Source: Isurus oxyrinchus
Taxonomy: Eukaryota
Direction of reading: 5' to 3'
NCBI GenBank assembly: GCA_026770705.1
Contig: JANJGN010000034.1
Location: 5,022,001-5,086,000 of the forward strand
DNA length: 64,000 nucleotides
Shown in pieces: positions 11,013 to 62,804 of the stretch. Both the position numbers and the translations under genes were made by a program. Position 1 is the first letter of the stretch. Every line of letters begins with the position of its first letter. The notes under the pieces were generated by a model. The model was not told where the DNA came from and ran no database searches. It saw only the letters and a list, made by a program, of their open reading frames with translations.

Positions 11013-11027
11013 ATGACAACAATACCA
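11013..11027 (+). CDS. Microexon E1 (15 nt, phase 1-1) of an unnamed coiled-coil gene; encodes xDNNT
   Basis: ttttttccaccttgcag|ATGACAACAATACCA|gtaagt: strong acceptor and consensus donor. Confidence 0.65.
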
Positions 11028-14000
11028 GTAAGTGAAACTGCAAGTTTTCCCTGATCTAGCTAATATGTGCGACACACTAGCATTAATGGAATAATTATGC
11101 AACTTGGAAAAATTAACGCCCCAATTTCTACCCTTCTAAAAAAGTAAAGCTTATTCATTAATTGGCTCCTAAAAGAAGGTCCAGATTTTTCATGTCACGA
11201 CCTCATAAAAGGCCAAGTTGCTTACTACTGAACTTTACATGTGACAAGGTCGTTCTTGTTTGATATTATTTAGCAATCATAACGTTTTGTTCATGTATTT
11301 TCTATATAGTGCTTCACTGATACGCAAAAACTGCTGCAACATGGGCCTGCAATTAATTGGGCGGGCAACCAATAAGCTTCACGTTTCTCAAGAGACTGAA
11401 ATTTGACACTGCTGCTGATTGTCCCGTTCATTGACATAATTGGGATCCATAAGGGGTATTTTATAAAACCTCAATTATTTTACTTACATGGACTTGCATA
11501 GAGGGGACATAATCTGAAACCTGCAGGTGAGAGGAACATTGAAAAAAGCAATATATCGTGGGGTTCATAGCAGAAGGTTGGAGAAACTACTGTGGAGAAA
11601 GCTGAAGAGGGTTTAAAATTGGAAATTACATATGGGAAATTACTAGTAACATTTGAAATGTGAAATGATGTGTTTCTTTCCTGTATCATTTTAAATGTGA
11701 CCTCTTTGTCTCCTTCAGCATAACTGCAGCTTTAAAATATTTATGAACCCCGCTCCTCTATTTTACTTTAACAACGAAAGTAATAAATACAAAATTAAGA
11801 GAGTTATCTAACTGGCCAGTGACTCCATTTTGACCTATTGAAAAGGACTGGTGCAGTTTACTCTTGGTACAATTATATTCGCTCTAATTTAAATCAGATC
11901 AAATAACTAGGAAACGCTGTTTTATATTTAAAAAAAATGTCTTAATAAAATAGGCTACTGGCCTTACACCCTGCTGCATTTTGTTTTCTTTTCAAGGTCA
12001 TGTGACATAATATTGAACAGGGCTGTAAGGAATGCAATCAGAAGCTCCAGCCGAAAGATTTTTCGGCGACATTTATTTCTTTGTCTTCAGCTCCATGGTA
12101 CACAATGCTGAAATGCAGTAATGTATGAATGAGGCTGTGCCAGTTTTTTTTTATTCCTGAAAGCTGGGATTGAGTGACTGCCTGTGCCACACTGTTACCT
12201 CAGCCAATGGTAATTTGTTTGAACACTCTTAAGTTTTTCGGTATACAGAGAAGAGACAAACCAAAGTTTACAGTATGATAACCTGATGAATGGATGAACA
12301 TTGAAACTGTATGAATTGCAGAAACAGTGTGCAAATACTTTGAGACAGTAGTGCAACTCGACCAAAAGGAACACACCAACAAGTTACAGATCATTGTGCA
12401 AACAAAAATAAAAATACTTTGCACACATCATCCACAGCAAATTGTGAATAGCCCACGACATTGTTAATCACGTTCTTCAGGTTTGATTCAGGAACTGAGC
12501 CCTTTTAAATTTGGGTGGCTTTCTTTGTGACTTTCTTGAATATATTTCAACAATGCTCTGCCATCTCTTTGAAAGCCGTATACAGATATATCAAAACAAT
12601 CAAAACATTGCCATTGCCATTATTTCCTACAATACCTCACACCACCCTGATCGGTAACCTTACAGAAAATGTAAAAAAACTCATACATGTTCGTAAACAA
12701 GGAAACATTCTTCTTAAATTTTTTTTTTGGAAACGAATGGCTTTAAGGCAATTGCTCTCCTACATACAGCTGTTATGTCATCTGGATTTGATAACTCAGT
12801 TATTGTAGTACCCTTTACAGAAGAAAAACTGCTGTCCTTACCCTTGCCTTTTCAAAAGTGACAGCAAATCTCCAAAAGCATGGTTCTATCTTAACTGTCG
12901 TCAGGAATTGACTAGCAAGCCATGCAATTCAACGCCAATTAATGATGATCAGCAAATGCCTTCCTAGCCCTGCCCACATTACATCAGGGAATACATGAAT
13001 GCAATAATAAGTTTTATTGTGACAGCAACCACAGAAACGGACATCTGATGCCATCCATTTAAGTTTCGTAATTTTCAGATGCCCGATTAGCAAGGAGAGT
13101 TATAAGTGATAACACATTCTTTAACACAATATTTGCGTTAAAATGTTATTCAGGCACAATCGTAAAACGTGGGAAATACCATCCCGTTAAAAATATTCCA
13201 GTGTAAGTTCCAAAGAGATGGCTTTATCAATTTTGTATCCGAAATGTCAGAGGTGTTGTGATAAATTAGTCATTATCATTTTTAAGAATGAAGTTTTTGC
13301 AGTTGGGTTCTTATGAAACTGACGCAGAAGCAAAATAAAAGTGGACTACAAACATACGCACACACAAGTTATTAGCTCAAAGGTTACTTTGAGGAAACAA
13401 GTTTTTCATTTTTGTGACATTATTTCTACATGCCTTGCTCTCCGACTGATAGATGTGTGAATATGCTCTGTGCATCTAGCTCCCAGAAACTATCATAACC
13501 CTAAGTATCTCCATCAAACGACGAATATTTCCTTCCTGTGGAGCTATGTTGGCTTGTCAGTCCATTCTTTCCTGCTACTTATGATCATTCAGGCTAGCAC
13601 AAACCTCACAAAATAAATCTGAGCAGATTCCTTGCTTCCACACTAAGAGTAGACATGACAGAAATTTGAATCTGTGCAGTTACACGACATTTAGCCAGGA
13701 TAATTGCACACTAATCAGCACTGTATCATGTTTAGAAAAGTTTTTTTGCTTGTGCACCACAGTGTCATGAGAACCAATGGAGAGGCAAAAGGATAGATCC
13801 AGTGTGAAATAGCATACTACCTGTTCGCATAAGTGCACTGGCAATCGGGTGACATTGCAATGCCACGTCAATTTGTACATGTAGCTTTTTGTTATGAATG
13901 CAGTGGACGTCTTATTCCATGTGAAAAGCGAAGCAGATTATCACAACATTTAGAGGTATCATTCTGCTTCAAGGGATTAAAATTCCTGCAATTGTTGTAC

Positions 14001-14100
14001 TAGCAGCATACCAGTGCAATGTTTCGCATCTGCAGTGGTGCAGTCGCAACTGACAACACAAATATGTATGTTTGAAATTGCAACTGTTTTTTTTTTGCAG

Positions 14101-14127
14101 GTTTGGAACGTGTGGCTAGAGATTTAC
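14101..14127 (+). CDS. Microexon E2 (27 nt, phase 1-1); (S)LERVARDL
   Basis: ttttttttttgcag|GTTTGGAACGTGTGGCTAGAGATTTAC|gtaagc; fits the heptad register. Confidence 0.8.
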
Positions 14128-59820: not shown

Positions 59821-59846
59821 GAGAGCTGGACCTGAGAGCTGGACCT
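59821..59846. repeat. Tandem duplication, 13-bp unit x2
   Basis: gagagctggacct repeated. Confidence 0.9.
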
Positions 59847-62783
59847 GACGTGGACTGTGGTTTTGTGAATGGCTCCAAAGTTTAAGGCATGAACTTATTC
59901 CGCTCTGTGGCTGTGTATGAATGTGATAAAATATTGAACCAATGTCGATACTTGGAGGCAACAAATGTCAAGGTCCAAGGCTCTGAAGGCAAATCATTTT
60001 TGTTGGCATTATATTACTGCCGGAATATTACAGCTCTAAGAGAAGAAAATTACATGTTTCAGCTCGATGAAAAAGAAACCTGGATGGAATAAAATGTAAT
60101 CAATTTGAAGCATTGACGAATTATTCTTCTCTTCAGCAGAAGATGTCATTTCCAGCTTTTTGAATATAATGTGAAAAAATGTTACATAACTATGGAATGA
60201 ATGCGTATATAATGGAACGTGTGAAAGCCTAGAGTTTAATGTAAACAGTTTGAGAGGAGTCAGGGGAATCAACGGTGTGAGATTAAAAATTATCTTTCTG
60301 TGGGTATAAGGAACTGAGACACTGTGACGCACAACAAAGAAGAAGAGCAAGAGTGCGGAGTTCAGCCTCAATTGTGCCAAAAGAGCCTTAGGACTTCTAC
60401 TCATGTGCAGATCCTATTTTTCATGCACCTGGATTCCTGCAAATGTGCAATCTGCAGCAGGGCCACACATGCGAAGTTAGTTGATTTTCACATCTTCACT
60501 CCTGGAACTGACCCTACGCAAATGAGAATTTCTAATTTGTTTTCTTTTAAGAGGCTGCAAACCAGCCCCGTGCCTGGGCTGAAGTAAACTCGCACGAAAA
60601 TGTTAGGTGACCTTAAAGAGGGCCGACATTGCCCAGAACTGTCCCAAGGAACAGGAGGTGGGATGGAATCTTAGAACAAGTCCTAGGTATTGGACAAGGT
60701 CCTACACCATGCACTGGGACAGAAATAGGTCCTAGCAGCCAGTTATCCTTAAAAGACCCAGGACTGGATTCTGAGGCAGGCCATTTCAGATAAAGGTAAA
60801 ATTCAGGAGCAGAAGTTAAAGTGAGGAAGCAGCGGGGGCAAAAGTGTAGGAAACTGGGATTGAGATGAGGTAGAACTTCGTGGATGAAGTCAAAGTTTGT
60901 GACCCCTTTCTTCGTACATTCGGAGCAAGGGAGTTCTGTTTGCCAATGCCAACAATCCTAGAGTGTGTGTGGAATGTGATATGTGAATATATCGATAGAT
61001 TCAAGGCGGAGAGGGGGGGCATTCAGAAGGTGAGGTTGAAATTTTGGGGGTGGATTAATGTTGAAGAGTTCCGAATGGAAAATTCCTCTGGGAGAAAATT
61101 TCCAGGAAGACTTCTGGAGAAAGGTAGAATTTCAGTAGTATTGGCTGGTTCACGGTGCAACAACCATCTTGGATAATAATCATAAATATCGGGAATGTGC
61201 ATTAGTGGCACCTATCACTCGTTTTCCGCATGCTGTATTGATCCGCAGTTCAGCTACTAGCTTGCATGTGCTCCATACTTACCCTGAATAGTAGAGACTA
61301 AGATAAATATTGTAAATTGTCACATTGTACCGAAATTTTCTGCACTATTTTACGTTTACTTGGAGTGAAGGAATAGTGACTTCAATATTGAGCAATGTTT
61401 GTTTTCCTTCTGTATTTAATTGCATTCTACCTTGATAATATTTGCCTTATTCTTTGTGTTAAATGTACAGTAGCGAACTACTGGACATGTGTTCTTTAAC
61501 TGCCCTCCACGGTTACAATAATTAAATTAAGATCTATCAAGCCAGGGACCTCTCCATGATTTCACTTGTTCAATCATGATATTCGCTGTAATCATTACAG
61601 CACAATGTATTTTAGCACACAGAAATTTCAGGCACTTGAGATATTCACTGCAAAGACCGAGGTCTTGAATGGTTTAAACACATTGATTTTAGCGCAACTT
61701 TTAGTGAGACCATCATTTAGTTTCAGATTGGCTGTGATTGTTCCCTTTGGCTAACATTTGTTAATGATATTTCACAGAATTCAGTGTTGTCAAACGTGCA
61801 GAAATGAGTTGTGGCTTTTTAATATTAAGGAACTGAACTATTCTGATCCATAGAGCGCAGTCTGCAAGTGTACCATAAAGAAACCTAATTATTTTCGAAA
61901 CATTAATGGGAATGTTTCAGGCGAACGTGATTAAAGTCGACTGACCAGGTTTTTCATTCAGGTACAGCTTGGGCTGACTTAAATTGGCTCAAGCTTCAGC
62001 AAACTGAGATAAATAATGCTTCTCTGATTCTGGTTGGTTTTAAATCTCGGTTGACGCTTTGTAAGATCCAACTGTGACTTATTCCACAAATCATCTAGTT
62101 AAATAAGTTATATCCTCTCATCTGTAACTGCAATTTTATTTTTATCTGACATGGACTTACAGAATTAGAATTGCCAAAGCTCCAGTTCTTCGAATTATGT
62201 CCAAAGATGCGGTCAGATCAAAATGTTTTCCCAGCTGAGAGGCCCAAGCATTTTACCTTGAAGAAAGTTATGACCAAATGCCATCGTATATACTTGTGTA
62301 GGGTATTGGCAAATGTTGATTGATAAGACGCCTATGAACCGAATTGGAAGCCTCAGAACACGAAATGGGTCATTCGGAACACGTTACTGACAGTATGCCT
62401 CTTCTTTGCTGCCTCTTCAAGAGCCAAAAAAAAAAACACCATACGTAAAGTTCATCCAATGTTTCACTGCTGTTCCAGGTAGACAAACTTACCTAAACAT
62501 TTCTGGAGTTCGTTCTCACTACCGAGATTCCTTTTAAGTCATTTCTACATTTTTGAAAAAATCTTTACTAACTGGTATGACTGCGTCTTCGAGGCTCTAT
62601 TATTTGTATTTATGCAGTACTCGGTTAGAACTGTATTTTTCATTGATCCGGTTGAATTGAGGTGACTCTATCTTTTGTCAAATCTGAATTTGAAAATGAC
62701 TTTATTGAAACATGGTTCTATTACTTTTCGATGGCAATTGAATTTTGATAGAATATTCACCACTTTCCTCTTCTGACTCACAG

Positions 62784-62804
62784 ACCTCAAAAAGTGCAAA
62801 AATG
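62784..62804 (+). CDS. Microexon E15 (21 nt, one heptad); (D)LKKCKN
   Basis: cactttcctcttctgactcacag|ACCTCAAAAAGTGCAAAAATG|gtaagg. Confidence 0.8.

Follow-up and report, generated by a model that had tools for sequence, protein, structure and literature searches.

A 64,000-nucleotide (nt) stretch of the 4.98-Gb genome of the shark Isurus oxyrinchus, hereafter the window, lies on the plus strand of assembly contig JANJGN010000034.1 (C34) at positions 5,022,001-5,086,000. A preliminary description had placed it in the interior of a poorly annotated gene whose symmetric phase-1 micro-exons spell a coiled coil. This proposal was borne out, while the size of the gene had been understated. Reading 1.776 Mb of C34 without gaps revealed a plus-strand run of phase-1 micro-exons that spans about 1.54 Mb and ends in a phase-compatible B30.2/SPRY exon, and the whole window (1..64000, plus strand) falls within it. 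Below, coordinates prefixed C34 are those of the contig and all others those of the window.

The earlier chain consisted of 15 segments bounded by AG and GT (E1 to E15). All were located at the lengths described (351 nt in sum), their joined phase-1 frame is open without a stop, and the intron between E6 and E7, put at about 9.4 kb, measures 9,450 nt. Because these candidates carried selection bias, they were rescored in a held-out test, with splice and coding models trained on 223 exons that all lie outside the window, and with the minus strand of the 1.776 Mb as the null. Chance was expressed as occurrences expected per 64 kb. Against this reverse-strand control, 10 of the 15 segments scored far above chance (E1, E3, E6-E11, E13, and E15, each at most 0.04 expected), E2 and E14 were moderate, and E4, E5, and E12 were at chance level. 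At scores of 6 or more, the window held 14 plus-strand candidates (11 distinct acceptors) versus 2 on the minus strand. The exact 15-exon chain did not survive: E5 and E12 are likely false or optional, E4 is uncertain, and a 24-nt candidate that outscores all three had been omitted. The segments, all on the plus strand, are as follows.

11013..11027, plus strand: E1, 15-nt phase-1 micro-exon; strong (score 16.1, zero expected by chance)
14101..14127, plus strand: E2, 27-nt micro-exon that fits the register; moderate (score 4.3, 0.22 expected)
16228..16233, plus strand: E3, 6-nt micro-exon with strong sites, present in every best-register chain (score 9.5)
16435..16458, plus strand: 24-nt candidate exon absent from the preliminary description, possibly an alternative to E4 (score 8.1)
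17040..17060, plus strand: E4, uncertain 21-nt candidate with weak splice sites (score -6.1, 3.8 expected)
18131..18136, plus strand: E5, 6-nt candidate, likely false or optional, which breaks the register after E4 (0.61 expected)
18979..19014, plus strand: E6, 36-nt micro-exon; strong (score 8.4, 0.04 expected)
28465..28491, plus strand: E7, 27-nt micro-exon; strong (score 10.2)
29687..29722, plus strand: E8, 36-nt micro-exon; strong (score 22.4)
30665..30691, plus strand: E9, 27-nt micro-exon; strong (score 12.5)
33522..33551, plus strand: E10, 30-nt micro-exon that shifts the register (at most 0.04 expected)
42112..42147, plus strand: E11, 36-nt micro-exon; strong (score 10.0)
42740..42745, plus strand: E12, 6-nt candidate, likely false or optional (3.0 expected)
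54831..54860, plus strand: E13, 30-nt micro-exon; strong (score 17.6)
55029..55055, plus strand: E14, 27-nt micro-exon; moderate (score 5.2, 0.18 expected)
62784..62804, plus strand: E15, which opens a series of 21-nt one-heptad exons (score 25.3)

E4 matches the pattern of the 21-nt exons and is in register when E5 is skipped. The flanks of E15 are homologous to those of the 21-nt units that follow (expect values, E, of 2e-11 to 4e-8). DNA searches detected no paralog of window positions 18900-19100 or 54600-55300, nor of C34:5.372 Mb. With in-frame inner GT sites, E8 could be as short as 12 nt, and E10 could measure 6 or 15 nt.

Whether the heptad pattern crosses the exon junctions, as the preliminary description held, depends on the part of the chain considered. 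E6-E9 are in register, whereas the full 15-exon chain lacks 3.5-residue periodicity: its power at that period (0.22) was reached by 1292 of 2000 exon-order shuffles. In E2-E9 joined as originally proposed, 11 of the 17 a/d sites are hydrophobic. Leaving out E5 raises this to 15 of 17, and the resulting 3.5-residue power was reached by 126 of 5040 exon orders and by none of 5000 residue shuffles. Adding the 24-nt candidate while keeping E5 and leaving out E4 yields 16 of 18. As these alternative chains were picked by viewing 16 combinations, we treat them as leads. For E11-E14, dropping E12 improves the a/d count from 5 to 7 of 9. Two shifts of register occur, one at E10 and one ahead of E15.

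Across the gene, exon length corresponds to position within the heptad. The 36-nt exons are hydrophobic at residues 1, 4, 8, and 11 (90, 94, 89, and 61%, respectively), which represent a, d, a, and d, and 47% of them carry cysteine at residue 4, the first d site. Residue 3 is hydrophobic in 74% of the 27-nt exons, and a 36-nt plus 27-nt pair makes up three heptads. The 21-nt exons (29 of the 391 listed below) each encode one heptad with hydrophobic residues 1 and 4. Of 330 residues at exon junctions, 260 are Glu or Asp, and the highest 19-residue hydropathy anywhere along the rod is 0.53. We infer that the window is a handover from the 36/27 series to the 21-nt series, which would account for its odd 6-, 15-, and 30-nt exons. 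The irregular 6-30-nt exons mark register shifts at this handover. Tuning of rod length by cassette skipping, also suggested earlier, is possible: joining exons at random creates a stop at only 0.4% of junctions and isoforms of related proteins differ by 6-9 amino acids, but loss of a single 27- or 36-nt exon displaces the heptad register.

The gene as a whole is delimited by the following features.

C34:4,852,690-4,852,754, plus strand: putative first coding exon, an ATG frame with basic and then hydrophobic residues
C34:4,852,931-935, plus strand: putative 5-nt bridging piece, one of three lenient bridging candidates
C34:4,859,457-4,859,567, plus strand: head exon of 111 nt, phase 1, with strong sites and a paralog match
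to about C34:6,395,200, plus strand: rod exons, from the splice/coding model
C34:6,395,819-6,396,339, plus strand: terminal B30.2/SPRY exon (SPRY E 1.8e-13, over the cut-off)

Both strand and length class set the run apart from background. A generic splice model applied to 464 kb returned lengths that are multiples of 3 for 73 of 108 plus-strand candidates versus 23 of 58 on the minus strand; between the two B30.2 exons of the region, at score 10, these fractions were 204/234 and 20/63. With the combined model at score 8, there were 331 plus-strand candidates versus 13 minus, and each 100-kb bin read contains 7 to 25 exons. Flank homology identified 60 further intact copies and 12 broken ones. 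Altogether, 391 exons were listed, encoding 3,713 residues with 1 junction stop; by the minus-strand control, 13 of those listed would be false. In the duplicated blocks, nine sets of 14 exons, score alone recovers 75 of 126. The true total may therefore be about 370 to 530, the upper figure (~530) being reached if the 60% sensitivity seen in the blocks applies elsewhere.

Ten tandem anchors lie 25.6-29.7 kb apart at C34:5.885-6.138 Mb. The reference block contains 14 exons, whose 130 residues do not amount to a whole number of heptads. Eight copies were compared with this reference block. They keep 224 of 224 acceptor AG bases (background 68%) and every non-gap donor GT base (background 62%), and their 928 codons contain no stop. 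Identity is about 0.90-0.91 in exons versus 0.83 in introns. The terminal B30.2 exon compared with its duplicate showed proportions of nonsynonymous (pN) and synonymous (pS) differences of 0.038 and 0.102. Retention of splice dinucleotides and the lack of stops in the tandem copies indicate a gene under selection, and these are very probably real exons of such a gene. This test covers C34:5.88-6.14 Mb and the last exon; among window exons, only E15 has clear flank-homologous copies. The gene has grown by tandem copying both of exon-plus-intron units and of the 14-exon block.

The largest gap between exons (51.6 kb, C34:5.108-5.160 Mb) is devoid of intact strong plus-strand exons. Three dead copies within it, homologous to the 21-nt unit that flanks the gap, share that unit's strand. 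No Pfam domain was detected among its 51 frames of at least 78 amino acids, and no B30.2. Dead 21-nt copies with broken acceptors or donors were observed at C34:5,119,164; 5,130,839; 5,138,650; 5,268,498; 5,269,903; and 5,275,121. They represent the birth and death of single heptads. Beyond the terminal exon, the next unit (C34:6.40-7.50 Mb) duplicates the 3' part of the gene at 81-90% DNA identity (81% at 6.27 Mb), and its B30.2 domain shares 92% amino acid identity with that at 6.396 Mb. A search of this unit for a head exon found none; it may be headless or provide an alternative 3' end to one 2.6-Mb transcript. We are fairly confident that a single gene reaches the B30.2 exon at 6.396 Mb.

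The terminal exon is entered at a phase-1 acceptor and contains a stop, followed after 14 nt by a polyadenylation-like hexamer. SPRY was reported above the cut-off in this exon; PRY was not reported. A second SPRY exon, at C34:4,816,455 (1 of 75 frames), ends the upstream gene, and a search with it returned relatives at 6,395,806 and 7,496,432 (plus strand) and at 2,708,638 and 3,474,125 (minus strand). Tblastn with seven related proteins placed B30.2 only at 4.8165 and 6.3958 Mb within the 1.776 Mb. The best match to a solved sequence was BTN3A1 (E 4.4e-20), and with a run that ends in B30.2, the likeness to butyrophilins and BG drawn in the preliminary description is apt. In the alignment to the BTN3A1 phosphoantigen pocket, which we take to be His/Arg/Arg/Arg/Lys, the His is replaced by Ser, two Arg by Ser and Leu, the third Arg by Lys, and the Lys by Arg. 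A CD23-like lectin end is not supported: the terminal exon is B30.2, and Pfam scans detected no lectin family (with frames under 135 amino acids covered in the 5' interval and the 51.6-kb gap only). The proposed flank search for signal/membrane, Ig, B30.2, or lectin exons yielded B30.2 and neither Ig nor lectin. Ig families matched none of the 70 plus-strand frames of at least 72 amino acids at C34:4.817-4.872 Mb, where frames cut by the locus edges could escape, and none of the 75 and 95 other frames scanned. RING and B-box were likewise lacking in the 70 upstream frames, in a scan that detects both in a control TRIM-type protein. Among database proteins of 330-2000 amino acids, 0 of 838 candidates matched the B30.2 domain at E 1e-30.

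Relatives were recognized in other cartilaginous fishes. The B30.2 domain is 36-55% identical to those in models from chimaera, skate, electric ray, catshark, bamboo shark, epaulette shark, and basking shark. Quick trees, with a midpoint root only, were made from the 40 best-scoring domains plus the chimaera row, and from the best 30 minus one long branch plus the chimaera row. In these, 17 rows (7 domains of this genome and 10 cartilaginous-fish database entries) form a clade apart from TRIM39-like rows, with support of 99-100 in the Shimodaira-Hasegawa-like approximate likelihood-ratio test (SH-aLRT). The clade includes the B30.2 exons at C34:2,708,638 and 3,474,125 (minus strand) and C21:89,722,185 and 91,348,266, and one domain of this genome differs very little from that of a basking-shark model, their branches measuring 0.055 and 0.017. 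Of the best 150 matches to PRY and SPRY in genome-wide scans, the majority fell within C21:83-118 Mb, a very large TRIM/butyrophilin-type cluster.

The chimaera model XP_042192744 ("nuclear-pore anchor-like", 1,697 amino acids) shares both the B30.2 clade and the rod. Its rod contains the 12-residue module of the 36-nt exons 21 times (shuffle mean 1.6, maximum 6), a count that any coiled coil would raise somewhat above shuffles; four short relatives gave 0 to 3 matches. Also in the clade are XP_055510696 (skate), XP_069797411 (electric ray), XP_038672306 (catshark), and GCC29436 (bamboo shark). Both traits, clade and module, are found in the shark gene, placing it in an unnamed cartilaginous-fish rod-B30.2 family. 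Its database models are short or fragmentary (129-1,697 amino acids), are named TRIM-like, A33-like, or butyrophilin-like, and appear cut at the 5' end when short; four that were scanned contained no RING or Ig family, and none was seen to cover the window's exons. Presumably these models rest on RNA. Seven isoform pairs among them differ by internal pieces of 6, 7, or 9 residues, as micro-exon skipping would give. The predicted fold of a skate relative has long helices and a B30.2 sandwich (predicted local distance difference test, pLDDT, 84), while folding an electric-ray relative from its single sequence gave a poor model (pLDDT 46). An Atlas search with the chimaera rod returned nothing above 0.85. 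No paper on such a family appeared among the titles and abstract openings searched, a literature mostly without subscription journals.

At the 5' end, the head exon has a paralog at C34:4,005,537 (70% identical) that likely heads the upstream gene. An in-frame ATG is present in both but is not shared; the hydrophobic start is common to the two, with synonymous changes. Conservation of this start but not of the ATG implies a coding exon further upstream. The candidate first coding exon has a strong donor at C34:4,852,755, adjoins the CpG-richest 300 nt of the interval, and ends in phase 2; such leader-like exons are expected 0.14-0.26 times per 42 kb. The candidate three-exon leader is open and would carry a net charge of +3 followed by a 19-residue hydropathy of 2.09. 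No single exon of the upstream interval reached a 19-residue hydropathy of 2.0. Among database proteins of 77-2000 amino acids, 0 of 13 candidates matched the head exon. No support for a signal peptide was drawn from the hydrophobic starts of the skate and epaulette-shark models: judged from protein alone, they stop where an acceptor-like junction would be expected and may be intron read as coding. In XP_055510696 and XP_060706632, hydrophobic N-termini may be intron pyrimidine tracts that mimic signal peptides.

Several other elements lie in and around the window. Within the 9.4-kb intron, positions 24003-24350 (plus strand) gave a weak DDE_Tnp_4 match (E 3e-4, under the cut-off, in 1 of 14 frames). 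It probably stems from a decayed Harbinger-type transposon, which would supply part of that intron's length. At 40169-40330, an 81-nt unit occurs in two copies 92% alike, probably part of a short interspersed repeat. Just 5' of the window are a tetranucleotide repeat tract of about 1.7 kb (C34:5,019,270-5,021,026) and a 24-nt phase-1 candidate exon with a strong acceptor (C34:5,021,953-5,021,976). Intronic retroelements (L018, L043, and L138; minus-strand frames near C34:5.386 and 4.686 Mb) have long reverse-transcriptase-like frames with weak GIY-YIG matches and are likely of Penelope type.

Our data suggest, with slightly less than even confidence, that about a dozen micro-exons in the window come from the middle of one 1.54-Mb gene for a rod with a B30.2 end that is likely exported or anchored. 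Roughly 400 exons of 15, 21, 27, and 36 nt would encode 3,700 or more residues of coiled-coil rod, and a hydrophobic signal would likely lead it, exporting or anchoring it. Granted a gene that extends to 6.396 Mb, we lean slightly towards an exported or outward-anchored rod rather than a cytosolic one. At the coiled-coil rise of 0.148 nm per residue, two chains pairing in parallel would form a rod of about 0.55 micrometre. Outside the cell, disulfides between core cysteines could hold the chains together. The paired B30.2 tips, predicted binding domains of immune type, may engage a partner protein, in which case the molecule would act as a long fibre or spacer that carries a recognition end. 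It may have originated from a butyrophilin-like gene minus its phase-1 Ig and membrane exons. The fullest version of this reading is more speculative: a gene with more exons than titin, encoding a secreted, disulfide-pinned fibre of about 0.5 micrometre with B30.2 tips, specific to cartilaginous fishes and adjustable in length by exon gain, loss, and skipping. Equally speculative is its corollary that a butyrophilin tail has been turned outward to serve as extracellular material or as a sensor.

A number of observations weigh against this interpretation. No transcript of the gene was seen, and no RNA data set was listed as matching window positions 54000-63000; four contig runs of the same species (presumed RNA, tissue unrecorded) left the B30.2 exon uncovered when compared with the last 10 kb, giving only diverged, repeat-like matches elsewhere in it, and are uninformative on expression. 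No ortholog of the window's own exons turned up in any database searched. The plus-strand count is partly circular, the model having been trained on plus-strand exons of the same region, and the blocks display mild coding constraint (pN 0.090, pS 0.133). Joining the leader takes either the 5-nt exon or a shift by one base. No paralog matches this leader, and it was judged by thresholds chosen after the candidate was seen; in-phase leader scans did not exceed the minus-strand control (5 vs 4, and 2 vs 4). The likeness of the head exon to the start of the chimaera model is weak, being reached by 55 of 2000 shuffles. Sequons are neither enriched nor depleted (10 vs 12 +/- 3), and B30.2 domains are mostly cytosolic. 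Parallel pairing and disulfide locking are predictions.

The same gene and rod could instead form a scaffold in the cytosol, comparable to the free BG tail (zipper protein) or an enterophilin. Translation would begin either at the ATG within the 111-nt exon or further upstream, in an exon that is not hydrophobic; the tip would bind cytoskeletal, trafficking, or viral partners. We regard this account as possible but doubtful. It gains from the failure to find an in-phase signal or membrane exon in 42 kb, from the low hydropathy of the rod and the in-frame ATG of both head exons, and from precedent, since zipper protein, a BG tail in soluble form, acts on actin-myosin (PMC4046983, in excerpt) and the butyrophilin B30.2 domain is intracellular (PMC12841164, in excerpt). 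Set against it are the hydrophobic codons shared ahead of the paralog's ATG while the ATG itself differs, the position of the sole leader-like exon at the CpG peak, and regular core cysteines, which would better suit an oxidising place. A membrane receptor of butyrophilin/BG type, with its Ig and membrane exons overlooked and the rod as a huge cytoplasmic tail, is much less probable. Heptads followed by B30.2 are the layout of a butyrophilin tail (in the available part of PMC8813856), BTN3A1 is the best solved match, and the candidate leader could span a membrane. Yet the 70 frames without an Ig match lie between the last exon of the upstream gene and the first rod exons, the charge of the leader would orient the rod outward by the positive-inside rule, and the phosphoantigen pocket is not kept.

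That the run comprises several genes, or that the transcript ends elsewhere, is unlikely. A boundary could fall in the 5.108-5.160 Mb gap, which has no intact strong plus-strand exon, or an alternative last exon could lie at 7.496 Mb, in the unit that shares the 3' part and for which no head exon was found; the modest lengths of database relatives would also fit. Against such a division, the units flanking and inside the gap are homologous and on one strand, the gap contains no Pfam domain or further B30.2, and the short models seem to be cut at the 5' end. Least probable is that the segments are splice-like matches arising by chance, or what is left of a dead gene. Three segments at chance level and 12 broken exon copies are what this would predict, but it is opposed by the asymmetry of strand and length class, by the complete retention of splice sites and frame in the block copies, and by an intact B30.2 exon constrained relative to its duplicate.

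The preferred reading would make this locus a contender for the vertebrate gene with the most exons, hidden because almost all of them fall below the lengths with which aligners and gene finders can cope. The gene offers natural tests of ordered splicing, with hundreds of 15-36-nt exons over 1.5 Mb, and of the evolution of protein length by one heptad module per step. It also defines an old cartilaginous-fish B30.2 family to which databases wrongly give TRIM or butyrophilin names. A real leader would make this family extracellular, which is rare among B30.2 proteins and would point to a structural or defence role.

Compared with known systems, the gene resembles butyrophilins in that the intracellular part of BTN3A1 likewise has heptad repeats before a terminal B30.2. 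It differs in having hundreds of heptads instead of a few, no IgV/IgC2 exon found, a B30.2 domain in a separate clade, and changed pocket residues. Chicken BG genes encode a long coiled coil from 21-nt exons, 13-36 per gene (PMC4046983, in excerpt); the shark gene has ten times more exons, mostly of 27 and 36 nt, and a B30.2 domain that BG lacks, with no IgV found. It is not a member of the butyrophilin or BG families. With TRIM proteins it shares the C-terminal SPRY, while RING and B-box were not found and the tree separates the TRIM39-like rows. Enterophilins, cytosolic proteins of enterocytes, combine a long leucine zipper with B30.2 and have no RING or Ig; they are far shorter than the shark protein. 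Enterophilin-1 interacts with SNX1 (excerpt of PMC13749957). Runs of symmetric 6-36-nt exons that permit skipping also occur in schistosome micro-exon genes (PMC3961193, in the part available). The products of those genes are unrelated small proteins without a heptad-coded rod or B30.2. Titin, with 363 exons, is called the gene with the largest number (PMC12198301, in excerpt); it encodes an unrelated protein, and the shark gene would equal or exceed its count with about 11 kb of coding sequence.

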